The notes under the pieces are model-generated. The model was not told the DNA's origin, did not search any database, and worked only from the letters and a program-made list of their open reading frames with translations. A stretch of 64,000 nucleotides of DNA, from NCBI GenBank assembly GCA_008632985.1, contig QPGO01000042.1:124001-188000 (forward strand), given 5' to 3'. This document shows, one piece after another, positions 6,329 to 56,365 of this stretch; position 1 is the first letter of the stretch, and every line of letters starts with the position of its first letter. The position numbers were made by a program, and so were the translations under genes. This DNA comes from Psammoneis japonica (lineage: Eukaryota).

Positions 6329-7540
6329 ATGCCTTCATGTACATGCGTCGATCCGCCTCATGTGGATCTTTGTACTGCTTGCTCCTTGAAAGATGTTTCC
6401 CATGACGACATTGACACGACGAGAAGAAAGCAAAAATTAAGAAGCGCACTGCAGAGACTCGGTTATTGTCATATCTCCGTAAAGAAATCTCAACTATCAG
6501 AAGACTCGCCGTTGCGTGATCTAAGCGGCAATCGAACGAAAGAGGAGGTTGAGCGTCTGTTTCATCCTGACTTCCTCCAGTCGCTTCGATCGTCAAATGG
6601 CGTTGACGTTTTTTCGCTTGAAGACGAAAGCATCACGTATCGAGGAAGAACCGCGGAAAGCGGGGATTCTTTAGCCTTGAAGTCAGAGCCCAAGCAATCA
6701 TGGGAAATCAAAAGATGCCGCCGCCGTCGTCGCGGTAAAGCTGTTGTGAACGATGATTGCGCGGAACTAGAATTTCTGAGTTGTTGTGTTGAAGCCCTTC
6801 ATTCGGTATCAGTGATGGTGACACGACTGCTGGATCTACCGCCCAATGTCCTCATCAAAGAAGATTCCTGTATCTGCGAAAGCGGTACTAGTCGTCAGTG
6901 CCAAGATTGCAATGCTGATTTGCTGAGAGTCTTTTACTATGACGCCGTCGAAAATCCCGAGACATTGGGATCAAGTGCTCATACAGACTGGGGAGGCCTG
7001 ACGGTTGTCTGGCAAGATGAAATTGGAGGGCTTGAAACCTTCTGTCCGCTTCACGAGCGGTGGATTGACGTAGCCGCACCGAAAGCAACAGAGGAGGGAA
7101 GCGACGACGATGAAACGCTACGTTTCGTAGTACATGTGGGAGACGTCACCAGCTTGTCAATGGGACATGCTGCTTCTGGAATAGCAAGTGCACGGAACGC
7201 TGAGTCCGGCAACTCACAATCAGTTTGGCCCTCACCACGACATAGAGTTGTGTGTCCCACGAACTTGATTCCTCGGGTGAGTTTGGTATACTTTGCTTAT
7301 CCACCGCCAGGGGTGACTCTACAGGATATGACGGAGTCACTACGGAAGTGGTGGGGCGAAAATACATCATCGTGTGAACAAGTCGGCGATATTGATATCA
7401 GTTATGAAAGCTATAGCTTGTTGCAGGATCAATCTGCGAATGGAACGCACTCGTCGGCACTGGAAACATTCGAAAGCATCAAGACACAACCTCTGCAAGA
7501 GGTTTTTTCCGCAAAGTGGCAGCAGGTCCAACGCAGTTGA
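6329..7540 (+). CDS. 2-oxoglutarate/Fe(II)-dependent oxygenase (IPNS-like)
   Basis: LLRVFYY, HTDWG (HxD), VVHVGD, HRV, RVS (RxS). Confidence 0.85.
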   Translation: MPSCTCVDPPHVDLCTACSLKDVSHDDIDTTRRKQKLRSALQRLGYCHISVKKSQLSEDSPLRDLSGNRTKEEVERLFHPDFLQSLRSSNGVDVFSLEDESITYRGRTAESGDSLALKSEPKQSWEIKRCRRRRRGKAVVNDDCAELEFLSCCVEALHSVSVMVTRLLDLPPNVLIKEDSCICESGTSRQCQDCNADLLRVFYYDAVENPETLGSSAHTDWGGLTVVWQDEIGGLETFCPLHERWIDVAAPKATEEGSDDDETLRFVVHVGDVTSLSMGHAASGIASARNAESGNSQSVWPSPRHRVVCPTNLIPRVSLVYFAYPPPGVTLQDMTESLRKWWGENTSSCEQVGDIDISYESYSLLQDQSANGTHSSALETFESIKTQPLQEVFSAKWQQVQRS

Positions 7541-13277: not shown

Positions 13278-15771
<2,494 letters not shown>

Positions 15772-16547
15772 TGGTTTGCCCAGTTTGAGAAGATCGAGGG
15801 AGAAAATAAGAAATACAGTAAGTGTACCGTATCGGAAGATCAGTGGTGGCGTGTGTCGGCCAGGCAGGCGATGACCGGCTGACTTACTGACCGCCCGCAC
15901 GACCGATTTATAATTTCATTCCTTCCAATGTTCATTCCCTGCGAATGTCACAATGAACTCCAGCTTCAATTTTTTTCCAAGCCAAAGGGTGAGTGCACAC
16001 AAAACTTTTACAAGCTTGTTTTTGTGGAGCTGTGCGCTCACCTTTCGATTTTCGAAACAATCAAAATTGAAGGAGTTTGTTGTGCCAAACATGTTTTTTG
16101 GCCGTTGTCCTTTTCTGTTGTGAAAATGGTCATGCACACCCGCTTTTTCATTTTTTGGAGCTCATGTTTTTGGTCTGCTTCAACTGAACTGATGTCTGAA
16201 CACACCCTGTTTCTGCAGACACCATGCAGTTAATTTTGCTGAGCGTGCCAAAAAAAAAAGTCCTCTCGACTTCTTCTCATCCATCTCATCCAGTGGCCCC
16301 CTCTTTTTGTTTGTTTTTGTGCACGTTTTTCACTCAAATCTCCAGTGCATCATGGTTGACAAAGAAAAGGAAGCAAACTGGAGTTGGCCATTGACACAAG
16401 TCAGGACCTGGAAACAGCAAAAACAAAAAGCACCATCTTGTGAAGGGCCATCCTTTCTGAGACAGCCACCCCCTCCCCAAGTCGATGCTTGAGGAGCGCA
16501 TGAGCCAGCCACTTCCTCCAATCTCACCTCTGCCAATGCTGCCATCA

Positions 16548-16860
16548 CTCCCTCCATTGCCCCCACTGACCAAACTCCTGTCAGCCTAAAACCAGCCACA
16601 GAGCACTTCACTTTCAACCCTTGTGCCTTTGATGAAACCCGCAAAGATCCCAACAACACTTGCCCCCTCCCAACTTGATGCCAAAGGAGCAACAGCCACT
16701 CCCTCCAACCTTGCATCTGCCAATGCCAACATGCCACCTTCATTCCTTCCATTGCTCCTGCCAACCAAACTCCTGTCAACCCAAGACTCTCTACAGAGTG
16801 CCCCACTTTCAATCCCCACACCTTTGATGAAACCCACAAAGATCCCCAACTGGCACTTTG
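16548..16860 (+). repeat. Degenerate direct repeat, two ~115-bp copies ~195 bp apart
   Basis: ccattgc..accaaactcctgtca...cactttcaa...cctttgatgaaaccc.caaagatccc occurs at ~16554-16651 and ~16748-16845. Confidence 0.85.
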
Positions 16861-17099
16861 TCTTGCAGCAGTCAAAATGAGAGATGGCATCTCATCTTGC
16901 ACTGCCACCCAGGAGCAACAGCCTGTTCCTTTGTGCACACATTGCAGTTTCCTAATTCAGCTTGCCACACTGAGGCTTGTAATTTGACGTTGCCAAAAAT
17001 GAGGGCTGATGCTGTGCAAATGACCAAGCAGTTCGGCAAAATGTGAGAACATGCCAACAACAAAAGCGGTGGTCAATGCTGCGCAGATGACAAAAAATG

Positions 17100-19795
17100 T
17101 TTTGTCTGTTCAGCGGCAATTGGAGTCTGCAGTTCTCCACAAAAAGCCTGCTGATGAGCCCAAATCATCTTCCAAAGACTGTGCCAATGCACTCAGCCCA
17201 AATCAAAAAACTGTTCATTGACAATTGAAGGAGGGAACCATTGCCAGAGCAGCCTTGATTGAGAGCAAAGAAGATGTCATGTGGTTGTCATCAAATCATC
17301 TTGACTTGGTGCAGTCTCCCAACTCAAGACAAATGACTCTAAAGATGAAGATGGAAACAAAAAATGAGTGAACAAATGGTTGCGCAATGTGTCATGCATG
17401 ACCTCCACAATGACATGTTGAAGCCTGTGGGTTCCAGTTGATTTGAACATGCCCACAATGCCAATGGCAAGACCCTCATCAGCAACACAATGTTTTGCTT
17501 TTTGATTCCCAAGCAATGTCAAAAAACAAACACCAGCCAAGAACGCAGCATGTGCAAATGCAGCGATTGTGTGAATGCACACTTTCTGCAAGATGCATTA
17601 AACAGGTTTCAAAGGAGGCTTTTAAAAAAAGATGCAGGTGGAGCAGAAGTGGTCAAGGTTGTGAATGATGACCCTGAAAACTCTGCAGCTGCAACAGTGC
17701 CATTGGCAAATTGGAGAACCAAATTGGCTGGTGTGAAGAGGGGGCATTTTGCCCCAACTCCAGTCACCTTCATCCCAGCAAAGCTCAAGATGCCAGTTGC
17801 GACCATCATTTGCAGCAATGTCAATGGTCAGGATCATCCCATTGGAAATGCATTTTGGCAAATGTGCACATTGCCCATCCTGTCCAACTCCATTGTTGGA
17901 ACAGAGTGAAAGTCCCAGTGAACCCCAAGTTTCGTTTCAGTGGAGTTTGACTGCAAAACATGTTCTGTTTGTGAGGCAGATTCAGATGGGAACAAGGATG
18001 CAAAGGTCAAGCAAAAGACCTTGTTGATAAGGTCTGTGAGCCAGCCAAGGTCTTTGCAAAAGAACACCACATTCCAAGTTTAAAGAAGCTGCGTCACCAC
18101 CTTCCCTGTGCAGCCATTCTTGGGGAAATCATTGCATGGAAATGCACTGCAAGGCATTTGAGTCAATGCATGTCCAACAGCATTTTCACATCCACTGGCT
18201 GCTCAGAGCATCTTCCATCTGAGTTTAACAACCAAATTCATGGGTTCATTGGGGCAGCAACCAAGCAATGTCCATTGAAGGCCAAGTTTGTGATGTGTGA
18301 TTGACATGAGGCTGAGAAAACATGTGTTGTGGGTTTCTCTCTGATTTTTCTAAGCAAGATGCTGCCACAACCAATGCTCACTTGGAAAAGTTTGTCACAT
18401 GGTTAAAAACCATGGAATGTGTCAGATGTGGCTTGTGATTTTCAGTCACACAGATGGTTGTGCCAAACACTGTCAATGCACTTTGGCACTGTGCTTTTGG
18501 TGCATGCCTGCAAATGCAAAGTTGTCTTTGACCATGCCATTGGAGCACACCTGGACATGGCAAAGAAGAGGTGATGGAATTGGAGCCTGCATTGGATCAC
18601 TCATTCATCCAAAAATGCAGCCCACAACTGTTGCAGGGAGTCAAAGATGAGGACTGGAAAATTGGGGCTAATGCTTTGGCAATGGATGACAACAATGTTG
18701 CAGCAGAGCACAGTTGCACACCAGAATGTTTGAAATTTCTTGAAAAGAAAGAGAGCGCCAATGGCACAGTTGGTGACAGGAAACATGCTGTGAGGGAATC
18801 CATTTGAAAGTTGAAAGAAAGGGTGCATCATCTGCAAGAAGCAGATGAAGTTCTTGGGCTCTTCAGTTGAAGTCAAGTTGCAAGGACAGGCACAACTGTG
18901 CAAGAAGTGCCATTGTGGCATTGGCGCCACTCACCATTTTTGTTTTGAACCCCTTTCCCATTGGTTTGGGTTGCCATGCAATGCATTCCTTGCACTTGTG
19001 ATGGCTGCCTGGATCAGCTCAAATGACATTGGGCAAACAATGTCAGCCCAACTGGCAGCCTTTGTGTGCAGCTGGCAACCAAGCTTGCAAACTGTGGCCC
19101 ATCTTTGGGGGGGGGGGGGGGGGGGGCTGAATGATTGGCAAGTTTGTCAGGTCAAACAACTGAGAGTGACAACAACAAGATTCAGCTGGTTCACAAATCT
19201 GTGTTGGACCTTTTGACTGAGGAAAAAGCAGAGGAAATTGTTGCAAACAGCCATGCCACATGTCCCGTGAGAATCTGACAAGGGCTTCTGTCTGCTGTGA
19301 TGGGATGAACTGCCCCACAAAGCACAGGAAGATGCAGTGTGGAATGAGTTTGATCCACCCACAACTGTTGAGGCTGGCAAATGGGTTTGCAAGGGAGTGC
19401 ATCTAAACTGTGCTCCAAGGGCCAGTGGATGGCGCACTCCTGGAGACACTGGGGGGTGTCAGACAAGAGGATTGTTGCTCAAGCACATTGTGGTTGCAAA
19501 CACCAAGCTTGATGAACCATCAGCCTCTCTGAAACTTCCAAGGACATGCAACAGGAATGAGGCTTTGCTTCTTAATCCACATCATTTGACTGAGGATGAG
19601 CATGAAGCCATTCTTGATGCAATCAACCAGTGTGTGAAGCCAATCACTGGATTGTTTTGAGGAATCTTTGGAGGAAGGGGGGGGGGGGGTGACAACAGCA
19701 AATGACCAGCCAGAGGAAAAAGAGTGATGATGAAGATGAGGAGGGGGAAAAGGACAGCATGGGAGTGGACAGTGAAAGTGATGAGTCAGAGGAAT
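17100..19795 (+). pseudogene. Degenerate DNA transposase (Sola-like DDE/D family)
   Basis: Frameshifted remnants MCKCSDC, DFSKQDAATTNAH, TDGCAKHCQC (18450-18479; cf. xDGCAxQYKC), PGHGKEE-DGIGA (~18550-18587; cf. HGKxxxDG), IPCTCDGC, acidic C-terminal tail. Confidence 0.6.
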
Positions 19796-19926
19796 GAAGC
19801 AGGAATGGGAAAACAACGAGTGCTGTTGTTGTCACTTTGCCTTGCATCCTGCACCAACTGGATGGACTGTCCAACACAAGCACATGTTTCCTGAGTCACA
19901 ACTCACAAGTCTTCCTTTCTTTGCCA

Positions 19927-20503
19927 TCACCAGTGCTTTGCCACCTGTGGAAGTTCAAAACAGTGCACCATGGCCACCAGTTTCTGGAGCTTGTTTGCCA
20001 TGAGCTTCATCTCATGTTTCTCATTTCCAAGACACCAATTGAAGCACTCAACATCACTTGCTGGCAATGCAAAACAGTGGTTGGAATCAAAGATCCACCC
20101 ATGGTGCAAGGCAATGCAGTGGTTGTTTACCAGATGGCACAAAGTCGTGCAGTCATCATGGCAGGTGGTCACATCAAATTCACCACCTGCTTCCAAGGAA
20201 ATGGCTCAATCTAAACTGCCACAAAACTTCATCTTTGAGTTCATTGGTGGAAAGTTTTCTCCTTCAAATGGCCACTCAGCATGTTTCTTGCAAACAACAT
20301 GTGATTGTTGTCAGCATTGATCTGGTGTTGGCCAATTTTTCAATGTGAGATGCAGTGCAATCTCTCATTTCCAGGTTGCCAACATGATGAAGAATGCTGC
20401 TGGCCAGGGATGAAAACACGCAAGTGTCTTTGCATGCTTGCAAGAATTTCACAGGCGGGCCAATCATTGGCAAGTTGCATCCATTGACATCAACACATTT
20501 CAA
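19927..20503 (-). pseudogene. Cargo ORF relic with putative papain-like Cys-His-Asp peptidase motifs
   Basis: QACKDTCVFSSLAS (Cys helix) followed by NHCIALHHGWIFDSN (His...Asp) and FALP...NWC. Confidence 0.4.
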
Positions 20504-23500
20504 ATCTTTTCAAACATCTGGAAACCACATCTTGAAATTGCACTCAGCCCAATCTGGGGTCACACACATTTTGCATGGTTGTTGTGCCCTCCAGGGTGCA
20601 ACCAACAAAACAAGCATCCCGCACAAGGCGTGGATCATGTTTGCCAATCTCCTTCTGACTCAGCCAATCTCTCAAGTTTTGCAACCTGTGGTGCACTGCA
20701 AATTGCATCCACCTTGTGCTTGATCTCATTCTTGCATTTTCAATTTAGTGCATGGACGCAGTTTGGTTTGTGTCAAGCATGTTCGATGAGGCCCACACAC
20801 ACTTGTCCATGGGATGGCCATTGGCATGGCCATTCCCAATGAGTGGCAGCAAGCAACCAAACAAGTGAGGAACAGCTCCTGTGGAATCACAGGCATGGTT
20901 TCTTCCTGTTTCATGAACTTGGATCAGTCCAAACAAATTTTGCAAACTTCAACATGCTTGAGCATTGATGTGTGTTCACTTGGTCATCTCCCCCTTTCTT
21001 TTGATGGTGCTTGTCTTTGCTCAAATGACAAAATGAAGGTGCACTTGGTTTCAGCTTTGAGCTGCAAAGGCCAATGAGATCCTCATCATTGCTCACTCCA
21101 GTGATGTCCTCTTTCATGAGCTTCATCTGGCATTTGTGACATGCACCTCCCACCCTCTCCTTCTCTGCCTTCATGTTCTGAGCACCAAGTTTTTGGCTGC
21201 CTCCGTGTCTCCCCCCAGCTCCTCCTCCTCCTCTTCCTCTTTGTCTCCCTTGTCTTTCTCTTCCTCTGCATCTCCTTGTCTGACTCAGTTGACTCATCCA
21301 TGCCTCCCCCTGCTCCTCTTCATTGTCATCTCACAGTCGCAACCTTTTTGTTCTCTTTTCTGCCTCTTTCATTTCATCCAAGCCTCTCTTGTGCATCTCA
21401 GCTGCAGTCATGCAATGGTGACAATGCATCCTTCTGCACAACAAACACCATTCATCGCAGTTGGGGAGCCACCTTGCCCAATTGGTGATGTGAGTCAGCA
21501 GCTCCTTGAGACAGCCCTTTTTTCTTGAGCCATCTGAGAAGTGCAGTTGCAACATTGGTTTGTTTGTGGTGACAGCCTCTGCCAACTTGGATCACCGCTG
21601 CAGCAAAAAGACTTGCGCAACTGATCCAGTGGGCACCAATGGCCAGAAAGAATCTGACTGCACCTGTCAGTTACAGGAACCCACAACACATGGTTGCACA
21701 GCCAACCAACAATGATGCCAAACAATGCCTGCAATGGCATTGTCTTTTTGTGGTTGCATGGACCAAGCAGGACAACATTTTGGCAACCATGACAGTCGGC
21801 ACAACATGTGAGGCAATTGGCATCATGCATCCGTGGGAAGTTTGGCATGCAGGGATCCTTCTCCATGTCATCACCTGGTTCTTCATGATCCTCCCTGTTG
21901 CAACACTCTTTGTGAAAACACAATCACTGCTGTTGTCCCCATTGGACTTCTTCAACTTGTCATGTTTGACACCTGGTTTGTGGTGCAATTTTTGTCCACC
22001 TGCTTCCTCTGAGCAATTTTTGATTTGACAGACTGACAGTTGTGTGTTTCACACCACAGCTGTTTGCAGATGAAATGGGATGATTTTTGTCACAACAAAA
22101 AAACAACTTGACATGCAACCCTTCAACGCCAACATTTCAATTTTGTTCTTCACTTCCCACTGGACTTAACTTGCCAGAAACTGTCAGACACGATCTTGCC
22201 AAAAGGTGGCTGCACAGTCTTCTTTGGATCCTCTCTGGTTGATGTTTGAGGGTCGTGCCTTTCACATCATCAATGTTGACCTGGCTGTCATTGCAAATTT
22301 TGTGCTTGGCAGCACTGAAATGTGCATTGCAGCAATGCAGCTTTCACTTTCAGCAAGTGGTTCCTCCCAAATGTCACCATCTTTGCTCAACTCAGTGCAT
22401 GGTTGAGATGCTCTGGGCTTAAATGAGGCAATTCCAAAACAATTGCAGAGCTCATTGGAGCAACCATCTCCTTTTCACACAATGCAACAGTGTTGTTTCC
22501 ATTGTTTGTCATGAGATTCTCTCACTCCCAGTGCTTGCAAACTTCCACCAAGTCTGGACATTGAGACATGGTGGTGTTCGTGCAGTTCTCAAAACCCATT
22601 GCTCCCATGCAACAAGGCACAGCAACTTCTGACAATGAAGACATGCCTCCAAGCTCCTGTGACAGCCAAACAAAATGGCTTGAACAAGTCTGACAAAAAA
22701 GGACAAACACCACAATTCAACAGCATGATTGTCTGTTTCTCATTGACCCCGTCACTGTCATCCTCAGAGTCTGCATGGATGCAATCAACAAGCATGCCAA
22801 TTCCTTTCTTTGCATGGCACAACAAAGCAGCAGCAATGTGCACCCCTTTTTGGCACTCCTGATTGACATTCCTGATGGCATTGCAACCAACATCAACATG
22901 TTGTTGTGCTTCATGCCAAGACAATTTCTTGTTTGCAATCAATTTTCTCAAGGTGAATTTCTTGAACAAACCAATCAGCAATGCAGCTGTGGAACAGGCC
23001 TCATGTTCTTTTGTTGCTGTTGAACCCATCAACACCATTCCTGTGATGAAACAGGTCAAAGAGAGAGCTGGTCTTCTGGGTTTTAGTGCAATCTTCCATG
23101 GTGAGTGGCTCAAATCCACCACAAAACCTTGTGGCACATGTGGGGATCAACTGAAGTGCAGAGAGGTGGCTGGCCCAAGTTTTGGAGCAACCCGCCTTTG
23201 AACAATGTCCCTTCATTGATTCAACGAAGCTCTTGATGCAAGGGTTGCATGCTTCTGTTTGTGCGACAAATGCAATCCAGAGAGGGGCCAATGTCAGTCA
23301 CTGTGAAAGTGATGCAGATGAACAGAGGCAGCCTCTGAGTCAGTTCCAGATGCCTGCTCAATGACACAAAAGAAGAAAGATCACAGCAAACAAACCAAAA
23401 CAAGTGCAAAATGGTGGCAACTGTCACTTGGAAACCGCTGGGGCGAATGTGTGAGTTTGGCAGAAATTCAGAACAAAGCCAAAAAAAGCACATGCACAGT

Positions 23501-24539
23501 GTCTCATGTGAACCACAGCACACAAAATTGACTTGCCAAACTCCAAACAAAAAAAAATGAAGAGATGGTGTCATCCACAATGACAGCAACTGTGCAGAGC
23601 TGCAGTCATGTTGCAATGACAATGACACAATGTTCAAATGAAAGGAACAGATGGTTCATGCAACTGCAAGGCAGGGCAAAGAGGGGCTGTGGAGTGGTGA
23701 CAGGGGTGTGCTGCATTGTGGCTGATGTTGTGTGTGGGGTGTTTTTGCATGTGGACCTCGCGTGCATGCAGAAGTCAGCATTGATCAACGCATTGCCAGA
23801 ACAACATTAGATGCCAACTGACACCACCTGTTCTTCCTGCAAAAAATGGCACATCAGTGGTTGGAGACATGTGCCTTTAACACAAATGTGTTTCATCATC
23901 AAAATGATTGAAGTTGGCCAAAAGCCAAAAAGTGCAAGCTCTGCCAGGTGGAGACAAAATTGTCTGGTGCTGAAAACTGCACAGAAAATCTCGCGTGATG
24001 GACTGTGAATCACCTGGGGCTGGAACAGGTCAGGACCGTGATTGCACTGGTCATGATGCCATGAAACTTCCCACCATGTGGTGTCCTTAGAAAGGAAGAA
24101 AAGTGCAGTGCAGGAGAGCACAACAAGGAGAAAAACAACAAGGCAGATTGAGCTGAGCATGCATGCAGAAAAACCACAAGGTGAGAAGTGGGTGTTCTCT
24201 GCCAGTGCTGTGCTTTCAAAATGTTGCTCTCTTTTGTCATTTGTTGTTTTTACAAAAAGCAAGAGGCCAAAAAAGACAGCTGACTGCAGCAAGTGTGGCG
24301 TGCTGTTGCTCAAAAAGCCCTCTCTTGTGTGAACAAGAGCTGAGCTTGAAAGGCTTGAAGAAGGATCCACCTGCATTGCCAAGTGTGCTCAAGAGCCAAG
24401 ACAGGCAGCAGCTCTCAAGAAGAAGACAGGGTTCTCACCATTGAAAAGATGAGGGGTGGTTGGAAGTCCAGACAGGTGCTGAACTCTGGGCAACAAATGG
24501 AGTGATTGCATGCTCTTTTCTTGGGGGGGGGGGGGGGGG

Positions 24540-24639
24540 NNNNNNNNNNNNNNNNNNNNNNNNNNNNNNNNNNNNNNNNNNNNNNNNNNNNNNNNNNNNN
24601 NNNNNNNNNNNNNNNNNNNNNNNNNNNNNNNNNNNNNNN
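24540..24639. other. Assembly gap (100 N), preceded by a G17 run
   Basis: N run. Confidence 0.99.
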
Positions 24640-26870
24640 CACCACAGATGTCAGCATCAAATTTTACATTGACAAAGTTGAGAGCACTCTCTCTCTCTCC
24701 ACCTCATGAGCAGCCAGTGGTGTGGAAAGAACCCACATGTGTCATTGTTCACCTGGCACAACCCTGACTTTGTTCTCCAAGAAGAGCAGGGGTCCTTTGG
24801 CAGGATTGTTGCTGTTCACAGAGCTGCCTTGGCAAGGAAACCAGCTGGGGGATCTGTGGGCACTTGCCTGCTGTGCAATCTCAGACTTTGGTGATGTGCA
24901 GCACTGCCCATGCCTTCCAAGACTGGAAAAAGACACAGGTCAGAAGTTGCTTCTCCCCCTGCTGCTGCTTAGGACAAGGAAGTTGCTTGGAGCTCATGCC
25001 AAGCTGCAAGCTGCTTTTTTCACACTCCTTCAAAAAACAAGCTTGAGATGGTGTGCCCCACATCTCAGCAAGCTCAGATGATGCTTGGCATTGTTGAAAT
25101 GATGCTCTCTTGCTGAAAACCTTCCTCCCACTGTGCTGTTCTTTTGTGCCATTGTGACTCTCCTCCATCCAATTGGGACAACAAGATTGCTTGTTCCACT
25201 GAAAAACGGCACCCAGTGATGCCTTCTTTGGCACTTCCAGCACCAAAGTCATTGTGAGAGACAATGCCAGGCACCACTCTCAGCACTCAAGCAGGGAGAG
25301 AGGGTGTGCAGGAGCAACTCTTTGTGAGCACTGTGCTCTGTCAAAAGCCCCAGTGAGCACCAGCAAGAGTTAAAATGCTCAAGCGAGCAAAGCTCTGACT
25401 GTTCCTGCAGTGCAGCCACTCCTTGATGCCAGATGCACAGACATTTCCAACACACTCTGTGCTCTCTCTTGACAATCTCTGCTTGTTTCATGCACAACAC
25501 TGCACCTGCATCATCACAAAGGATCTCCCAACCAGTGCTGCTGAAGAAGATCATTTTCAGCTGTTGTTGGCACTTTTGGCTGCACAAAATCTTGTCACAT
25601 GTTGTGGCTCAGACTCCACCCAACAATTTGCTGCAGCACAGGACATGCTGGTTGCAAGATGACTGATCTTGAAATGAGAGCAACAACACTGTGCTGCATG
25701 ACATGTCATCAGAAGATGTCAAGAGGTGTGCTCCCACTTGGCTTCTTGGCGGGGTCGGGAGGTTTCGGAGCACATCACTTTGTGGTCAATTCCAGCTGTT
25801 GGTGCTGACAAAACCATTTTACACCAGCCAGCATGTGAGCTGCCTTGTTGCCCCCCCCCCCCCCCCTGGTTGGATTGTGCAAACTGGCATGGGAGTAAAC
25901 TGGCCGGTTTGGTGAACATGATGTTGTGTGTCATGTGTCAAGTCCAGAGTTGTTGTGGCACAGCAATCTCTCCAAATGCTGGCACTTTTGAAACAGGCTG
26001 AAAACACATCCTGCTGGAAAGGGAGCAATGGAGCAGAGGGCACCCACAAGAGGAATGCAGTGAGAGGAGTGCAGCTGGGGTTGAGTCTGTGAGAATCTGC
26101 AAACTTCTCATGATGCACAGCTGCACACTCAAGCACCTTGTTTTGAAAGGAAAGGAGAAGGAGCCATCCTCATGTTCTTGCCTGGTGTTGCTGAAGTTGC
26201 CAAAGCCATTTAAAGAAACAATGTGCAAGACTGAGAAGGTGTTCAAGAAAACCTGCCAGAGTGGTGGTCTGCCCTTCTTTTGCACTCATCACTTGTCACA
26301 AAATGCACTCACCAGAGGCCTCCAACAGGAGTGCCAAACATTTGAATTGGTGCTGCAGTGCAACAATCAATTCTTTGGCAACACACACTGCAACTGATTC
26401 ACTCCCAAATAATGCAGCCAATTCCACAGCATTTTGTTGCTCGCTGAAAACCAAATGATTGTGATCGGTGCATTTTGTGTGTATAAACCAATGTCCCACT
26501 GTGCGATCTTCAGTGGCACGCCGATTCTTTGTGGGCGGATCAGGAATAAAAGGTGAGGGAGTGCAGCAAAGACTCAATCTATGTTTCGAGGCTCTATTTC
26601 CGGAGTAGCCATCCTCAAGAAAGGTGTCAATATTGTAGTTCTTCTGATGATTGACCAAAGCCATTCGATGCTGCTTGTAACCTTTATTCTAGAAAGCGTA
26701 GAGACCAAACCGATGGTCGATCTTCAAGCCATTTATTATTTGTAACATTGTCTATTGCTGTGTAGAAACCAAGAAGTGCGTAACCAACTTCAGTCAAGTG
26801 TACACACAACTTTTAATCTAGTAGGACATTTCTAATACCCATGCTGGTAGTATTTAGGCTATCCCTCAGC

Positions 26871-34911: not shown

Positions 34912-37900
34912 GGCAGGTCGTCAAATGGTGTGGGTTAGCGTACATAACGACATTGCTGACGCAGACGGTCATCCTTTAAGTAAGTAGCCCTATGTACGCT
35001 ATAAAGTTTATAGCGTACATAAAGAGCTGCTGACGTTATAGGGTCATTCTGCTTCTATGTACGCTACAAATCTCCCCTATGTACGCTATAAAGTGACATC
35101 CACAATTATGAAGAAAGACAGAAAGGTAATGGGTCAATTTTCAGTTTGGATTACCGACATACATCGATGAACATGTGTGCTTCGCAGGCACCACGCAACA
35201 AACTGCAGCACCACAATGATGCGTGCCGCCGGTGTCTCACTTTACGGCATGATGTCTCAATGACGCTTTCGCCGATTTTCCTGTTTGTTTTTGATTTCTT
35301 AACAAAAATTGTGCAATTCATCCGAAAAGCTTGGCGCTGTGGCTTCTTGACTTTGCTCATGCCATCCTCACAAAAGCAAGCCTTTGTTTCCTTGCCCTGC
35401 TTCTGCTTTCTGCTGCTGCTCACCTTGGGCTTTGGCATGTGCTGGAGATCATTTCTGGCCACCTCAGATGCTGCATGCCTGTGAACTTGTCTGTGCTTTT
35501 TGTCTTTTCTTTTTGTTGTTGCTCTGGCTTCTTGCTTCTCCAACACACAGAGCACTGCTTTTTTGCTGCTGCTGCTGCTGCTGCTTTTGTTCATGATCAT
35601 CATGCTGGGGAGCTCCTTGCCAAAGCTGCAAAGAGATGATTTTCCAGATCTGCAACAAGCATCAAAGCAGCAGTTCTTTGTGAGGCAGCTCTCAACAACA
35701 ACTGGGCCAAACCCCAAAGTGGTGCTGAGAACACTTTGCAGTTTGCGGGTGTTGCTTGGTCATGGACAACATGCAGAGTTTCTCAGCTGGCTTGCTGTGG
35801 TGGCAATGAGCTCTTGTGCTGTGCAGAGCATCTCAGCTGCTTGTGCTTTTGGCACCCAAAGCTGTCTCACAAGTTTCTCTTTTGGCATCTTGTTCATCCC
35901 TTCCACCTGTTTCTTCAAGATGCAGCATGCAGCAGGGCTCTCTGTGAGAGCTGGCATGTGGTGCCATCCTGGCTTCTTTTGCTTTGCCTCTTGCAGCCAT
36001 CAGAGCTGCAGCTGGACACACTGGTTCTGCACAAACTCTCCTTGTCTGCACGCCGCACTTTGTTTCGCACCAAATTGCGAGGCAAATCTCAACTGGCGCA
36101 GCTGTCACACACCCCAAAATGGCATTGAAAACACTTTTTGGGTGATGCTTGGCTGCGGACAACCTTCGGCCTTCTTGGCTGGGGCCAGCTGGGGGCAGCA
36201 GCCAGCTCTCTTGCTGCTGGGTCACAGCACAACACGCTGCAGAGCATCTCTCAACTGCTGCTTGCTTTTGGTGCCCAAAACAGTCTCACAATTTTCCCTT
36301 TTTGGCATTTTGTTCACCCCTTCCACCCAGTTCTTCAGTGCACAGCACACACCACTCTCCTCTCTGCACCCCGGCTCTTGCCCCTCTTCCTCTGGCTCTC
36401 TGCGCATCTTTTTTGCTTCTTGCTGCTTTGCCTTTTGTTGCAGCCACTGGTGCTGTGGCCAGACACTCTGTTTTGGCACAAGCTCATTGTCTGCATGTTG
36501 CACTTTGCTTCAAATGTTGTTCCTTGTCCTTTTGAGAGGAGATGCCTTTGGTGATGGGTGCTTGTGCAGAGTTGTTTGTTCTCCCCACTTTAACATCCGG
36601 GTTACTTTTGCGAGTTGACTCTCGCTTCGCTCGAGTCGAGTTAATCAAAACCTGCTGCCCACACCAGGTAAAAAAATGCCNNNNNNNNNNNNNNNNNNNN
36701 NNNNNNNNNNNNNNNNNNNNNNNNNNNNNNNNNNNNNNNNNNNNNNNNNNNNNNNNNNNNNNNNNNNNNNNNNNNNNNNNNNNNNNNNNNNNNNNNNNNN
36801 NNNNNNNNNNNNNNNNNNNNNNNNNNNNNNNNNNNNNNNNNNNNNNNNNNNNNNNNNNNNNNNNNNNNNNNNNNNNNNNNNNNNNNNNNNNNNNNNNNNN
36901 NNNNNNNNNNNNNNNNNNNNNNNNNNNNNNNNNNNNNNNNNNNNNNNNNNNNNNNNNNNNNNNNNNNNNNNNNNNNNNNNNNNNNNNNNNNNNNNNNNTG
37001 CCGCCGGTGTCTCACTTTACGGCATGATGTCTCAATGACGCTTTCGCCGATTTTCCTGTTTGTTTTTGATTTCTTAACAAAAATTGTGCAATTCATCCGA
37101 AAAGCTTGGCGCTGTGGCTTCTTGACTTTGCTCATGCCATCCTCACAAAAGCAAGCCTTTGTTTCCTTGCCCTGCTTCTGCTTTCTGCTGCTGCTCACCT
37201 TGGGCTTTGGCATGTGCTGGAGATCATTTCTGGCCACCTCAGATGCTGCATGCCTGTGAACTTGTCTGTGCTTTTTGTCTTTTCTTTTTGTTGTTGCTCT
37301 GGCTTCTTGCTTCTCCAACACACAGAGCACTGCTTTTTTGCTGCTGCTGCTGCTGCTGCTTTTGTTCATGATCATCATGCTGGGGAGCTCCTTGCCAAAG
37401 CTGCAAAGAGATGATTTTCCAGATCTGCAACAAGCACCAAAGCAGCAGTTCTTTGTGAGGCAGCTCTCAACAACAACTGGGCCAAACCCCAAAGTGGTGC
37501 TGAGAACACTTTGCAGTTTGCGGGGTGTTGCTTGGTCATGGACAACATGCAGAGTTTCTCAGCTGGCTTGCTGTGGTGGCAATGAGCTCTTGTGCTGTGC
37601 AGAGCATCTCAGCTGCTTGTGCTTTTGGCACCCAAAGCTGTCTCACAAGTTTCTCTTTTGGCATCTTGTTCATCCCTTCCACCTGTTTCTTCAAGATGCA
37701 GCATGCAGCAGGGCTCTCTGTGAGAGCTGGCATGTGGTGCCATCCTGGCTTCTTTTGCTTTGCCTCTTGCAGCCATCAGAGCTGCAGCTGGACACACTGG
37801 TTCTGCACAAACTCTCCTTGTCTGCATGCCGCACTTTGTTTCGCACCAAATTGCGAGGCAAATCTCAACTGGCGCAGCTGTCACACACCCCAAAATGGCA

Positions 37901-40233
37901 TTGAAAACACTTTGTGGGGTGATGCTTGGCTGCGGACAACCTTCGGCCTTCTTGGCTGGGGCCAGCTGGGGGGCAGCAGCCAGCTCTCTTGCTGCTGGTC
38001 ACAGCACAACACGCTGCAGAGCATCTCTCAACTGCTGCTTGCTTTTGGTGCCCAAAACAGTCTCACAATTTTCCCTTTTTGGCATTTTGTTCACCCCTTC
38101 CACCCAGTTCTTCAGTGCACAGCACACACCACTCTCCTCTCTGCACCCCGGCTCTTGCCCCTCTTCCTCTGGCTCTCTGCGCATCTTTTTTGCTTCTTGC
38201 TGCTTTGCCTTTTGTTGCAGCCACTGGTGCTGTGGCCAGACACTCTGTTTTGGCACAAGCTCATTGTCTGCATGTTGCACTTTGCTTCAAATGTTGTTCC
38301 TTGTCCTTTTGAGAGGAGATGCCTTTGGTGATGGGTGCTTGTGCAGAGTTGTTTGTTCTCCCCACTTTAACATCCGGGNNNNNNNNNNNNNNNNNNNNNN
38401 NNNNNNNNNNNNNNNNNNNNNNNNNNNNNNNNNNNNNNNNNNNNNNNNNNNNNNNNNNNNNNNNNNNNNNNNNNNNNNNNNNNNNNNNNNNNNNNNNNNN
38501 NNNNNNNNNNNNNNNNNNNNNNNNNNNNNNNNNNNNNNNNNNNNNNNNNNNNNNNNNNNNNNNNNNNNNNNNNNNNNNNNNNNNNNNNNNNNNNNNNNNN
38601 NNNNNNNNNNNNNNNNNNNNNNNNNNNNNNNTGTACGCTATAAAGTGACATCCACAATTATGAAGAAAGACAGAAAGGTAATGGGTCAATTTTCAGTTTG
38701 GATTACCGACATACATCGATGAACATGTGTGCTTCGCAGGCACCACGCAACAAACTGCAGCACCACAATGATGCGTGCCGCCGGTGTCTCACTTTACGGC
38801 ATGATGTCTCAATGACGCTTTCGCCGATTTTCCTGTTTGTTTTTGATTTCTTAACAAAAATTGTGCAATTCATCCGAAAAGCTTGGCACTGTGGCTTCTT
38901 GACTTTGCTCATGCCATCCTCACAAAAGCAAGCCTTTGTTTCCTTGCCCTGCTTCTGCTTTCTGCTGCTGCTCACCTTGGGCTTTGGCATGTGCTGGAGA
39001 TCATTTCTGGCCACCTCAGATGCTGCATGCCTGTGAACTTGTCTGTGCTTTTTGTCTTTTCTTTTGTTGTTGCTCTGGCTTCTTGCTTCTCCAACACACA
39101 GAGCACTGCTTTTTTGCTGCTGCTGCTGCTGCTGCTTTTGTTCATGATCATCATGCTGGGGAGCTCCTTGCCAAAGCTGCAAAGAGATGATTTTCCAGAT
39201 CTGCAACAAGCATCAAAGCAGCAGTTCTTTGTGAGGCAGCTCTCAACAACAACTGGGCCAAACCCCAAAGTGGTGCTGAGAACACTTTGCAGTTTGCGGG
39301 GTGTTGCTTGGTCATGGACAACATGCAGAGTTTCTCAGCTGGCTTGCTGTGGTGGCAATGAGCTCTTGTGCTGTGCAGAGCATCTCAGCTGCTTGTGCTT
39401 TTGGCACCCAAAGCTGTCTCACAAGTTTCTCTTTTGGCATCTTGTTCATCCCTTCCACTGTTTCTTCAAGATGCAGCATGCAGCAGGGCTCTCTGTGAGA
39501 GCTGGCATGTGGTGCCATCCTGGCTTCTTTTGCTTTGCCTCTTGCAGCCATCAGAGCTGCAGCTGGACACACTGGTTCTGCACAAACTCTCCTTGTCTGC
39601 ACGCCGCACTTTGTTTCGCACCAAATTGCGAGGCAAATCTCAACTGGCGCAGCTGTCACACACCCCAAAATGGCATTGAAAACACTTTTTGGGGTGATGC
39701 TTGGCTGCGGACAACCTTCGGCCTTCTTGGCTGGGGCCAGCTGGGGGGCAGCAGCCAGCTCTCTTGCTGCTGGGTCACAGCACAACACGCTGCAGAGCAT
39801 CTCTCAACTGCTGCTTGCTTTTGGTGCCCAAAACAGTCTCACAATTTTCCCTTTTTGGCATTTTGTTCACCCCTTCCACCCAGTTCTTCAGTGCACAGCA
39901 CACACCACTCTCCTCTCTGCACCCCGGCTCTTGCCCCTCTTCCTCTGGCTCTCTGCGCATCTTTTTTGCTTCTTGCTGCTTTGCCTTTTGTTGCAGCCAC
40001 TGGTGCTGTGGCCAGACACTCTGTTTTGGCACAAGCTCATTGTCTGCATGTTGCACTTTGCTTCAAATGTTGTTCCTTGTCCTTTTGAGAGGAGATGCCT
40101 TTGGTGATGGGTGCTTGTGCAGAGTTGTTTGTTCTCCCCACTTTAACATCCGGGTTACTTTTGCGAGTTGACTCTCGCTTCGCTCGAGTCGAGTTAATCA
40201 AAACCTGCTGCCCACACCAGGTAAAAAAATGCC
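34912..40233. mobile_element. Head-to-tail array of three near-identical ~1.77-kb non-autonomous elements (34912-36680; 36999-38378; 38632-40233) with N gaps at the junctions
   Basis: Copy offsets 1775 and 3552 bp; ends GGCA-N10-TGGTGTGGG ... CCCACACCA-N10-TGCC; flanked by direct repeat GGCTGACG (34904-34911, 40234-40241). Confidence 0.85.
34991..35021. repeat. Perfect 15-bp inverted repeat (hairpin) TATGTACGCTATAAA-G-TTTATAGCGTACATA
   Basis: Seen directly. Confidence 0.97.
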
Positions 40234-47199: not shown

Positions 47200-50120
47200 A
47201 TGTCCAGCGACATTAGTGTGACCAGAGGGTTGATCATTGTTGACACATCATTTGCTTGCACACTCAGAGGAGGCTCAGTTTGACAACAAAGTTTGAAGCC
47301 ATTTGCCACGTCATTTTGTTTCAGCATTGGCGGGGAGAAAAAGCAGGAGTTGTGGGCGGGACAGACAATCACAACAGCACTGCTGCCATCTGCATCTTTG
47401 TCTTTGCACTCAGTTTTTGCCGTGAGCAGTGTGAGTGGGTCCTGCTGAAGCTGGTGGGCAGATGACAAAAAGTTGACAAGAGCCGGGGTTGCTGGTGCGG
47501 CAGTGTGCTTTTTTGCAAAAAGCAGGGCCAGGGCAGGATGACAGCTCTTGCCATGTGTTTTTTTTTTACCCACAACAGATGCCAGCAGCACCTCTTTGCA
47601 ACACGGGGCAGGGTTTGTGTCCTGCTGCAAAAAGAGGGAGGATTGGTGGCACAAAGCACTGTCCCAAAGGAGAGCAGGAAGCAGAGCTCATCAAAAAAAA
47701 GAAGCCAGCAAAATGAAAAGGTCAAGACCACCAAATGTCTGCTTTGAAGGTGTGTGAAGTTTTTGGGTTCTGTGATGAAGTTGTGCCCATTGCAATCTTT
47801 GGTTGAGGAGAGTTGTTGCAATCTAAAACGTTGTGAGAAAAATGGCTGGCATTGCGTTGTGCTCCATTTCTGACACATGTGCATGGCATTTCAGACTTCA
47901 TTCAACATGTTGCCTCCCTGAGCTCAACAAGCGTGCATTGCAAACACATGTGCCAGCGGCACAATTTTTGGGATCTGATCTCACAGCTCTTCTTTGCAAA
48001 GTGAGGAAGCACCACAATGTTCCCTCAATTTTGCAGTGGTGGAATCGGAAGGAGGTGAAGGAGTTGTCTTGGGTGAAAACAGTGCATTCACTCAGTTGGC
48101 TGTGTGGTGCAAAATTGCACAAACACCAGATTTTGACATTTTGTGCAGCTGCAAGAGCACACATTGACAGTGTGTGTGGCCACTCTGTTGTGGCTGTGCC
48201 AGCATTTTGTCACTTCTTGCCACTGGCAGCACACCCACTGTGGGATTGTCAAAGTCACACAGTGCACAGAGCTTCTGAGAAGAGAGTCACAGCTGGAAAA
48301 TGTGGCAGCTGTTGCAGCTGTTTTGCTCAACAATGCTGCAATTGTCAAAGTCACAGAGGCATGGAGTCTTTGAGGAATGGCTGCAGCTGTTTTGCTGGAT
48401 GTCAAGCATTCCAGAAAACAAGCAGCATCAGGAGCAGCACTCAAAAATGGCAACTTGATTTAACCAGGGATGTTGGTTGGTGCAAAGTGTCAGAAGTTGG
48501 TGCTGGCTGTTCCTTGTGGCCACCTGCTCCATTTTGCAGCTTTGGCTCATCCAGGGTTCACTTCAAACATGGCAATGCAAACCCAAGTCAAAAGCCATGG
48601 ATTTATGATGTCAGTTTGTGGCATCAGAGTTGGGCCCATGTTTTCAACCCCCAAGCTGCTGAATGTAGACCCACCCAAAGCTGAAAGCATGTGTCAAAAC
48701 ATTGGAGCCAACCACAAGTTGATGCCAGCAAAGAACTGGATTTTAGTCCAGGACACCAAGCCTTGCCTCCATTTTCGTGATTTCATGAAGACTTTTTGAT
48801 GAAGTCTTTTTGCATGCATGGCAAAACCATCAATGCAGGCAAGTTCAAAGTCAATGAAGAAAAGGTTTGTTGTGCTGGTTTGTTCTTCAACAGGTCCAAA
48901 GTTGGAAGCAAAGCTGCAAGCTGCAGAAAAAAGTGGGCACAAAATGAAAGCTTGTTTCACCTGCATTCCAAGTTTTGCTGTGGAGCTGAGTGATGTTCCT
49001 GAATGTCTTTGCAGGGGGGGCTTTGCCAACATGGAAATGCAATCATTTTGTACAGCCAAGCACTTCTTCACAGATTTTAACAGGTCTGTGGTTCACAGCT
49101 GGGGCAAGACATTGCTTGTTGGCTGAAGGTCTGAAATCCAAGGCAACGTCTGGAGCCTTGTTGCACAGGCAAATGTCGGCAATGGCTGGGCAGCCAGTTG
49201 TCAGCTGGTGCAGCCAAAAGAGGCAAACACAGGATGTCTCTTTTGCAGAAGAAGCCCAGGCAGCCAGGCAGAAGCAACTGAGGAAGAAACTCAACATTTG
49301 CCTTGTTTTTCTGACAAGGAATTTTTCAAAAAGCAAGTGAGATGTTGCTTTCATGGTTCTTAAAGTTGTGTCTGAAGTCTGCCCCTGCTGCAAACCCCAG
49401 TGGAAAAAACTGAAAAAGCCACTTTGTAAAATGACAGCAACTGAGCTGGTGTTGCATGAAAAAAACCTTGGAACAGAGCATTTCATTTTGGCAACAGGGG
49501 CGCTGTCTTGTCAACCAACTTGCCCAAACTGTGCACATGCCAGCGGGCTTTGTCTTGTCAACTAACTTGCTTGGTGTCATGCAAAACAAGTTTGCCACCA
49601 GGGAATGAAAAAAACAGACTGGCCAAAGTTTGGCTCTGCGCTGCGAGACATTTGGCCATGGGGCTGGGCATCATCATTGTCAAAGATTTTTGTCATGAAA
49701 CATTGGCATTCAAAGTTGGGCATCATGGGCATTTTGCTTGAGAAAACAAAACAGCTCAGACAATCAGCTTTGATTCCTGTGCTTTGGAACATTTCACAGT
49801 TGGCGCACAATGTTTTGATGCCTCAAGCAAAAAAACCATGACAAGACAACAGCAACCCTTTCTGCCACCTTTCCAAGGAGCTGCAATGCACAAGCAAGAC
49901 CATGTTTTGCAAACGCTGCATGGGACCTTCACAAACCCAGAGCAATTTGTGGCCCAATCAGATGGACAACGAGCAACCAAATTTTTTTTGCATTGAAGCT
50001 GCTTTGCTCTCAAAGTTGTGCATGAAGAATGTTTTGCACTTGAGGAACAAAACAATTCAGCCAATTAGGTTTGATCCCTGCACATTGGGACATTTCACAA
50101 TGAGACGCTGATTTGGTCAT
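47200..50120. mobile_element. Unclassified CpG/TpA-depleted decayed repeat or gene relic
   Basis: Same compositional signature as the other transposon domains; no family motif recognised. Confidence 0.55.
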
Positions 50121-55000: not shown

Positions 55001-56275
55001 TGCCCACTCCTCCACAGCACAGGACTCATCAATGCACCCACTGGAGCAAGCCATGTCAACACCCGCTCCTCTGACTTTGAACCTTTGCATCAATGTGCTG
55101 CTGCCGCCAAACCCTGACCACATGTGTGGACAATCTGCCCAAACCACAAGCCATGCACCAGAGCCACCATTGAAGTTCGTGCCCGACACATGTGTGATGC
55201 TGACTGTCACACCTCCACTGGCAGCAGCAACAAACCATTGTGCTGAAGAACAAGCCATTCCAAGGAAATGCCTCGTGGGTCCACCATCAAGACCATCTTG
55301 TGGTGGGTTGTCAGTTTCTCATCCGGCACAATCCAACTGCCACAGCATCACCAGGGCCAGCTCCTTGTTTCTGCACTTGGGACACTGTGCACAGGAGTCT
55401 CAAAGAATCTCAAAGAAGTGCTGCGGTCATCTCTTGGGCAAGGTTCACAGCATGCTGCTTGCCACAGCAGGAGGCACAGGGCTGTGACAATTGAACTTGC
55501 AGCACTGTCTCACCTCCACCTCTGACTCCTGCATCTCAGTTGATTGGCACACATGTCAACAACTCTGGGACCTCCACACTGGCAAACCAGACACCACTTT
55601 GCATCCCACATGGCTCACCAAGTTGCTCCCAGCTGCCCATGGACACTGCTGCAGTGCCTGCAATGAAGCCAGGGTTCCGAGGTGTCCTCCTCCTGAGCCC
55701 TGTCAACATCTTCCATCTCTTGGCAACCACACCACTGCCAGTGGACCTCAAATTCACCATGGTCTCTGACGAGTCCAATCCACAGGGCAGCATTGTCAAC
55801 TCCAACTTGCAGCTGGCAGGCACAGCATTGTGCAAAGCAGTCATTGGCAACAACGCAGACGTGCACAAAAAAGTGGCCTGCATGTGCTGCAACAACACCA
55901 TGTCCATGTCCCAATGTGGCAAAAGATCCATTGCTGCCACCACAGGCCCAGCCTCTGACACCCTTCAAACTGGAAGCCTCCAAAACAGCACCACCTTTGC
56001 CACAGTCATGTGCTGTGTGCCAGGTCTCGCCAACCTGCCAGCCGACACATGTTTCCTCCAACTCAGCACCAACACTGACCTCCTTTCCAAGCTTTCTCAT
56101 CTTGCCCCACAGATGAAACATTGGCAAATGCAACACCCATTGCATGCCACCATTGCTGTGTTGATCTCTGTCTTGTGATGGCAAAGACACACCAAACTGT
56201 CACTGAGGAGCAAGCCCATGGCACCAACATGGCATGGGCAAAGTGCTGGCTCCCACTCACCCCTGTCCACCGGTG
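52030..56275 (+). mobile_element. Decayed DIRS/Ngaro-like (tyrosine-recombinase class) retrotransposon: gag-like region plus RT and RNase H relics, truncated before the recombinase
   Basis: Frameshifted RT remnants GVVPQ (~54625), VDRSCCGLN, LAPQEAVQFGHAL, MKLDLSNGSCRV, PLVLSMG.SES..CFC; RNase H remnants NSNLQLAG, CNNT, TTGPA, CVPGLANLPAD. Confidence 0.75.
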
Positions 56276-56365
56276 TCGAAACTTACGTAGAGAGTAAACC
56301 AAGTACAATTAATCTCTAACACAGAGCTGCAACAATCCAAGCTGTAGTGTTATCATACAATCTAC

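Follow-up and report, generated by a model that had tools for sequence, protein, structure and literature searches.

In mutation-accumulation lines of the chlorarachniophyte Bigelowiella natans (B. natans; Rhizaria), two integrated viral regions mutate about 1000 times as fast as the rest of the genome, and 230 of the 231 mutations in these two insertions are A>G or T>C changes, all of them at TpA (Mettrop et al., bioRxiv 10.64898/2026.01.13.699255). The targets are integrated DNA of nucleocytoplasmic large DNA viruses (NCLDV) and of virophages, 124 TpA-poor clusters rich in CpA and TpG, many of them without annotation, are spread across the genome, and an ADAT2-like DNA deaminase has been proposed as the agent (Mettrop et al., 2026). 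Within the literature searched this 2026 preprint is the only report of TpA-specific hypermutation, and its main text gives no flanking rule and does not mention CpG, diatom, trinucleotide or flanking; our search of the literature found no report of TpA hypermutation in diatoms. Here we describe a stretch of 64,000 nucleotides from Psammoneis japonica (GenBank assembly GCA_008632985.1, contig QPGO01000042.1, positions 124,001 to 188,000 of the forward strand; hereafter the window), in which four blocks have lost nearly all TA and CG while TG and CA have almost doubled, and in particular the region 16141-24539 inside a high-copy repeat, where the context of the few remaining TA steps allows a rule of their loss to be read. 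As in B. natans, the footprint is one of TpA converted to TpG or CpA on both strands, in discrete nuclear blocks poor in TpA and rich in CpA and TpG. It differs from that case, as far as the main text of the preprint describes it, in its diatom lineage; in degree, the purge here being about 95% complete whereas the active viral regions of B. natans keep TpA at 3.3% and 9.2% of dinucleotides; in its targets, here a high-copy repeat together with further blocks in which no viral or transposon domain was found; in the accompanying loss of CG and in the +1/+2 rule revealed below; and in that the B. natans events were observed de novo, while ours are deduced from a sequence footprint.

Within 16141-24539 (8399 bases), TA occurs 27 times against 595 expected from base composition (observed/expected, o/e, 0.05) and CG 54 times (o/e 0.12), and TG and CA stand at o/e 1.88 and 1.78, respectively. 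Among the dinucleotides ending in A only TA is depleted (AA o/e 1.29, GA 0.92, CA as given), which places a T at -1 of the changed A, as a TadA/ADAT2-like activity would have it. The 27 TA steps fall in the contexts TTAA (10), CTAA (7), TTAG (4), TTAC (3), CTAC (1), GTAA (1) and ATAA (1). An earlier reading of the same letters by eye (the original prediction) had counted about 26 TA, about 21 of them in YTAR (Y, pyrimidine; R, purine) and about 5 in other contexts, and had taken TAY, equivalent to RTA on the other strand, to be the mutable motif; the actual split is 21 and 6, and the TA steps it cited are found at 16231, 16587, 17599, 18404, 20746, 23084 and 24088. This YTAR share of 78% is far from what three null expectations (19-32%) provide: 1666 TA contexts from 40,096 flanking bases predict 19.3% (p=9e-11), the contexts available to new TA arising out of the block's own CA and TG predict 23.4% (p=4e-9), and a first-order Markov model within the region, which absorbs its excess of AA and TT, predicts 31.8% (p=1.2e-6). 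In the pooled TA-poor blocks (18,531 bases, with the tandem unit of block B2 counted once) 37 of 55 TA steps are YTAR. Counts of the NTAN tetramers likewise gave depletion that varies among contexts rather than the uniform depletion that the original prediction had named as speaking against itself. The non-random context of the surviving TA in the region is thus real.

The rule behind it is not, however, that YTAR is spared. Measured against flank density, with all three copies of the B2 unit counted, TA survival is 0.51 in TTAA, 0.25 in CTAA/TTAG, 0.15 in GTAA/TTAC, 0.05 in ATAA/TTAT and 0.035 or less in the remaining contexts, and even the supposedly spared YTAR contexts are depleted 2- to 30-fold. 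CTAG, itself a YTAR, should by the flanks make up 34% of the YTAR sites, yet none of the 21 in the region is CTAG (p=1.7e-4), and the pooled blocks have 2 against 50.4 expected; GTAA/TTAC, which lies outside YTAR, survives better. A TA followed by A or preceded by T, that is, one contained in TAA or TTA, makes up 26 of the 27 survivors in the region and 49 of the 55 in the pooled blocks, and describes them better than YTAR does. Poisson models of TA loss, with flank density taken as the ancestral density, were compared by the Akaike information criterion (AIC), which is -48.6 for uniform loss, -106.5 for YTAR versus the rest, -126.3 for the number of TAA half-sites and -144.6 for an additive model that treats the A of each strand separately and lets its 3' base fix how fast it is lost; the last improves on YTAR versus the rest by 38 units. 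The fitted relative loss rates by the +1 base are 0.25 for A, 1.34 for G, 2.08 for C and 3.58 for T, and the +2 base also matters, TAAA surviving at 0.41 and TAAC, TAAG and TAAT at 0.08-0.16 (Fisher p=1.6e-5). Because A at +1 and +2 protects, survivors are found at the junctions of T-runs and A-runs (TTAA, TTAAA, CTAAA), and this location gave the impression of sparing at YTAR. The +1 dependence is best described per strand, as expected if the activity recognizes a short motif centred on a single A. Of the original claim, the dependence on a short motif stands, with a pyrimidine at +1 lost fastest as judged from survivors, while TAY alone does not suffice, since TAG is destroyed as well. The disappearance of Tyr codons, formerly put down to a TAY preference, is explained by the loss of all TA: with both strands counted, the region retains 6 TAY (0.7/kb), whereas the flanks have 45/kb.

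The blocks are set in eukaryotic DNA whose genes are tightly spaced and largely uninterrupted, among them those of gyrase B, biotin synthase and an LtrA-like protein; the biotin synthase is 78-90% identical to those of Seminavis, Phaeodactylum, Nitzschia and Cylindrotheca, which are raphid pennate diatoms, and to many marine sequences. The genic DNA of the window has a CG o/e near 1 and a TA o/e near 0.5, and the block edges, sharp to about 100 bases, adjoin genes of normal composition, so that the blocks are discrete in the manner of those of B. natans. B1 as a whole extends over about 16031-26400 and is interrupted by a gap of N at 24540-24639. Its left part, B1a (16031-24539), is the high-copy non-coding repeat, with 3.2 TA, 6.8 CG and 227 TG+CA per kb, and its right edge is the assembly gap; the right part, B1b (24640-26400), has 3.4 TA and 3.4 CG per kb, and TA and CG return from 26410 onward. 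B2 (35300-40140) consists of three tandem copies, 99.5% alike, of a 1776-base unit; in each, TA is absent from about 1.3 kb, and the remaining 0.45 kb or so is normal in composition. The B2 array spans 35080-40233, and with two gaps of N inside it the structure may partly reflect scaffolding. B3 (47215-50065) has 3.9 TA, 7.7 CG and 224 TG+CA per kb and is unrelated in sequence to B1; B4 (52170-56283), with 2.2, 8.3 and 241 per kb, is unrelated to the other blocks. When the window was compared with itself by BLAST, the blocks proved mutually unrelated, and matches occurred only among the tandem copies of B2.

The sharpness of the boundaries is well seen on the left of B1a, where about 240 bases separate its edge from the end of the gene for gyrase B. 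The N-terminal part of this gene (14143-15771, - strand; Pfam DNA_gyraseB 5e-39, HATPase_c 6e-14) is of normal composition. The whole lies in two open frames on the - strand, 13278-14069 with the Toprim and C-terminal domains and 14143-15771 with the ATPase and DNA_gyraseB domains, with about 70 bases between them, and a short intron is the likely cause of the split. A gyrase of organelle type fits a plastid-bearing host.

CG is lost in the same blocks as TA, and both losses yield TG and CA; the loss of CG, equally strong and sharing these products, had been overlooked in the original prediction. With flank densities taken as the ancestor, the TA plus CG lost and the TG plus CA gained amount to 88.4/kb and 87.3/kb in the region 16141-24539, 91.2/kb and 88.4/kb in B1b (24640-26400), 88.7/kb and 82.8/kb in the TA-free part of the B2 unit, 86.4/kb and 84.4/kb in B3, and 87.6/kb and 101.1/kb in B4. 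A balance so near to one for one in unrelated blocks is hard to explain unless TA and CG became TG and CA. Since TA>TG/CA adds one G:C pair and CG>TG/CA removes one, GC stays flat (0.46-0.54 in the blocks; 0.47 in the region against 0.48 in the flanks), and therefore the blocks are not visible as isochores. TG and CA are nearly equal in B1a (942 and 988), and both strands were therefore struck alike. Same-strand runs of TG versus CA, as processive one-strand events might leave, were not found (runs z -1.4 to +2.4, no overdispersion), in a test that is weak because only about 17% of the TG and CA of the blocks would come from TA. In a partly independent check, the split of lost XTAZ and XCGZ between the products XTGZ and XCAZ was predicted from the survivor-derived rates and compared with the observed excess in 16 product classes; the correlation was r=0.64, as against r=0.10 for an even split, with XTGA/TCAX the products least in excess; the excess is highest for TGC/GCA, a figure confounded by the decay of CG. 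The CG that survives is itself context-biased in all four blocks: GCGC and CCGC/GCGG remain at about 0.3 of flank density, and TCGA and ACGA/TCGT survive at 0.05-0.07, so that TCG and ACG are lost fastest.

Contigs of three runs, which come from one sample of one study, were aligned to 15000-26700 at a likeness of at least 80%. They show the segment from about 15800 to 24383 to be a high-copy repeat, matched by 980 contigs of one run alone, 111 of them at a likeness of 99% or more, 163 at 95-99%, 282 at 90-95% and 424 under 90%. Across 16173-24383 depth ranges from 98 to 1780, unique DNA having about 55-58, and the left edge of B1a at 16031 is marked by 14 loose contig ends. In the bin 15782-16172 depth climbs to about 4200, several-fold above the remainder of the repeat, and the left end of the element seems to include a short, very abundant segment that borders the upstream region of the gene. 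The sole internal repeat found in B1a is a direct repeat of about 190 bases, 73-76% alike, at 16469-16846, and neither terminal inverted repeats nor long terminal repeats were detected in B1a. B1b has a depth of 42-71, that of single-copy DNA (unique DNA about 55), and yet bears the full composition free of TA and CG and rich in TG and CA; present-day high copy number is therefore not required.

Differences between contigs and window are mostly transitions (A>G 180, C>T 175, G>A 162, T>C 175, with each transversion class at 39-57), and such equal transitions are what independent resolution of old TA and CG sites into TG or CA predicts. Context was checked in 32 of the 1051 difference rows, leaving out 8 listed rows at 20888-20903 that come from a messy alignment near the end of one contig. 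Among these, 24 lie within blocks and form 14 transition events, 10 of which switch among TA, CG, TG and CA: 4 are TA<->TG/CA, 4 are CG<->TG/CA and 2 are adjacent TG<->CA doubles. All four variable TA steps in these rows are in contexts of the TAA/TTA type (ATAA, TTAC, GTAA, TTAG), and at one of them, the ATAA at 18028 of the window, all 10 other contigs have CA. The unique flank 15000-16030 has 8 differences in about 1 kb. An adjacent double transition is seen also at 15604-15605, in the coding DNA of gyrase B, where the window has CA and the contigs of two runs TG, a change between alleles or strains within DNA of normal composition. The copies of B2 differ at 4 positions, two of them CG>TG/CA, and the part of normal composition still has its 13 TA in the two units that are fully assembled (the first and the third). 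With copies 99.5% alike and the normal part retaining its TA, the purge must have preceded the triplication, which set off no new loss.

Of protein-coding capacity the blocks give little sign. Pfam searches of the six read-through frames (stops as X) of B1a and of B4 gave no family at E<=0.01, and among the six-frame pieces of at least 70 aa, 150 of 151 of which were searched (the piece at 16000-16230 being left out), 14 had only sub-threshold hits with E of 0.0055-0.046; Rfam at gathering thresholds gave no match in the whole window. B1a is thus a degenerate, non-coding, high-copy repeat, and the term transposable element would be only an assumption as to its class. Stop codons are redistributed in the region, TAA standing at 4.3/kb, TAG at 1.4/kb and TGA at 53/kb against 17, 21 and 37/kb in the flanks. 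With TAA and TAG lost and TGA almost the sole stop, long open frames result on both strands: frames of 100-413 aa are found in all six frames of the blocks without a family match (e.g. 38847-40085, + strand, 413 aa). Gene callers would report false long genes in such blocks.

We propose, as the probable account of these findings, that B1a is one copy of a degenerate high-copy repeat in a diatom nuclear genome which has undergone, together with the other blocks, two transition processes confined to the blocks and now near saturation. Directly observed are the skewed composition, the influence of sequence context, the balance of losses and gains, and the repetitive nature of B1a. The direction of change we infer from the mass balance, from the differences among copies and from the precedent of B. 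natans. In one process CpG would become TpG or CpA, the usual fate of methylated CpG. In the other, TpA would become TpG or CpA through A>G changes that strike the A of each strand independently. How fast an A is struck would depend on its 3' neighbour: a T there allows the change no less readily than a C, a C more readily than a G, and an A makes it much slower, the more so when +2 is also A. The loss of CG would most simply be the decay of methylated CpG, given a CG o/e of 0.12 in the region against about 1.0 in genic kilobases and the CG>TG and CG>CA changes among copies. As in that decay, CG has gone to TG and CA in repeats only, and genes keep a CG o/e near 1; the decay covers the CG half only, and cannot remove TA.

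For the TA half, the most likely agent would be a candidate adenine deaminase acting on DNA, in the logic of TadA or ADAT2, one dependent on a T immediately 5' of its target and disfavouring an A immediately 3' of it. The strict need for a preceding T, the additive behaviour of the two strands and the shortness of the context on the 3' side together fit an activity reading a few bases around one adenine; hypoxanthine, the product of adenine deamination, pairs with C and so gives A>G. TadA and ADAT2-ADAT3 are tRNA adenosine deaminases acting on A34 after U33, and base editors have been derived from TadA. The likeness lies in the T or U required 5' of the edited A and in action on one strand at a time, which suits the additive model, and the parallel with TadA drawn in the original prediction is in this respect compatible with the data. 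The natural TadA and ADAT enzymes, in contrast, act on RNA, and the +1 order found here does not match their tRNA substrate set. As for the C at +1 that TadA prefers (UACG of tRNA-Arg), survivors rank C second to T, and product excess ranks it first. A DNA deaminase of this kind would perhaps be drawn to silenced or methylated chromatin, where CpG disappears as well; that the losses of TA and CG coincide exactly suggests a single state of silenced chromatin directing both. Repeat-induced point mutation (RIP) of ascomycetes, which changes C>T mainly at CpA, creates TpA and leaves AT-rich DNA, as is also stated in the abstract of RIPCAL, resembles the present case as a transition hypermutation of repeated or selfish DNA with a dinucleotide context, sharp edges and destroyed coding capacity. 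It is rejected as the agent here by its direction, for the region has become poor in TA and rich in CA at a GC content (0.47) that is still that of the flanks (0.48), and unlike under RIP a single-copy block is affected too.

A number of points weigh against the account just given. The change of B. natans type appears here as an indirect footprint, made up of o/e values, mass balance and four TA<->TG/CA switches, that is, of composition and copy differences rather than of observed events. Flank composition stands in for the ancestral sequence in the survival, model and mass-balance figures alike. The +1 order depends on the method, being T>C>G>>A from survivors and C>G~T>>A from product excess, and only the protection by A is robust across the two; the product check is moreover confounded, since CG decay prefers TCG, disfavours XTGA and leaves the same products. 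The switches among TA, CG, TG and CA, 10 of 14 where about 47% would be expected by chance, are suggestive only. A degenerate Y/R pattern made from B1a in search of less-mutated copies matched no stretch in the metagenome contigs, the 144-aa frame of B1a had no relative among proteins at E<=0.001, and the Pfam scans gave no viral or transposon domain in the blocks, unlike in the targets of B. natans. Finally, since the triplication of B2 either repetition alone has triggered no loss, or the process is now slow or inactive.

Several other explanations have to be set against this one. That only TAY (or RTA) is mutable and YTAR untouched, as originally supposed, would suit the 21 YTAR among 27 survivors and the highest fitted rates for a pyrimidine at +1, and is nonetheless very improbable: the absence of CTAG in the region and its near absence in the pooled blocks, the survival of TTAA and of CTAA/TTAG at only 0.51 and 0.25 of flank density, the better survival of GTAA/TTAC outside YTAR, and the 38 AIC units by which it falls behind the additive model all speak against it. 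One might think instead of error-prone repair of the DNA polymerase eta (Pol eta) type, in which the T:G mismatches left by deamination of 5-methylcytosine in methylated repeats are repaired by a polymerase that wrongly inserts G opposite the T of a TA step, much as happens in phase II of antibody hypermutation. Loss of TA would then be tied to that of CG, with which it coincides exactly in all blocks, and A>G at T-A would arise on both strands. Pol eta has its A>G hotspot at WA (W, A or T), a rule that calls for loss of AA, yet AA+TT come to 179/kb in the region and to 150/kb in its flanks, and AG+CT are not raised (121 against 128/kb), which speaks against the parallel with Pol eta in the original prediction. 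In addition, the 230 events of B. natans, as far as the preprint describes them, are all at TpA without accompanying C>T (Mettrop et al., 2026), and we regard such repair as an unlikely source of the TA loss. A target on the thymine side, by TET/JBP-type oxidation of T at TpA to 5-hydroxymethyluracil (5hmU) or 5-formyluracil (5fU), which mispairs with G and leads to T>C, is harder to tell apart, for T>C and the complementary A>G are the same in sequence, and a palindromic TA with equal TG and CA suits either. Although 5hmU favours TpA in dinoflagellates, we know of no modification of this kind in diatoms, the only 2OG-Fe(II) oxygenase gene of the window (6329-7540) matches the general family only and offers no link, and the context would become a -1 rule, T at -1 protecting, that is equally unexplained; we consider oxidation of thymine quite unlikely.

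The high copy number of the block would also accord with A-to-I editing of element transcripts by an ADAR- or ADAT-like enzyme, fixed in new copies by reverse transcription. Editing of one strand, however, would give TG far in excess of CA instead of the 942 and 988 observed, the single-copy 24640-26400 bears the same signature, no remnant of a reverse transcriptase is found in the read-through frames of B1a, and the tolerance of ADAR-type enzymes for U or A before the target is at odds with an AA that is not depleted. The preference for a 5' U is described as typical of RNA adenosine deaminases in the preprint's Discussion, and yet the B. natans events themselves arise in integrated single-copy DNA (Mettrop et al., 2026), so that editing of RNA seems to us scarcely credible. 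Might the remaining TA be new, made by C>T or G>A at CA and TG after a complete purge, or be homopolymer-related assembly errors? The ATAA at 18028, where every other contig has CA, may well be a private new mutation, and AA and TT are enriched in the block. The contexts of the block's own CA and TG, on the other hand, predict 23% YTAR and 46-50% TAA/TTA where 78% and 96% are seen (p=4e-9 and 3e-7), and a context-dependent forward rate is needed even in an equilibrium of forward and reverse change, so that we hold this origin of the survivors to be rather improbable. That no mutation took place, and that TA and CG are instead avoided in the blocks as foreign DNA or DNA under selection, such as for escape from a nuclease, has its precedent in the avoidance of short words by phages and viruses; five mutually unrelated blocks with the same depletion and a one-for-one gain of TG and CA, the lack of coding capacity and copies that differ mainly by transitions leave it next to no probability.

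We therefore return to the two block-confined processes and consider what they would mean. The case is best filed with the recently described TpA hypermutation, as one from another major lineage that adds a sequence fingerprint. If the near-saturated footprint in a diatom is indeed that of the same process, TpA hypermutation is more than the peculiarity of one alga, and the erasure of TpA may be an old means of genome defence, widespread among the major primary producers of the sea. In the +1/+2 rule, by which A protects and TAT, TAC and TAG are lost, the activity behind the rewriting has left a concrete fingerprint, one that can be compared with the de novo mutations of B. natans and with candidate deaminases. 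Blocks of normal GC escape scans based on GC or on RIP indices. We put forward tentatively, as a possibility somewhat short of an even chance, that DNA adenine deamination targeted by chromatin serves diatoms, and by extension the stramenopiles, alveolates and Rhizaria (SAR) widely, as a defence that erases TpA in selfish DNA. Such a defence would act in CpG-methylated domains and leave GC flat, its damage thereby escaping isochore or RIP scans, and the specificity of its enzyme, requiring a 5' T and refusing a 3' A and A-runs, would be readable from the DNA left behind and usable for identifying the enzyme.

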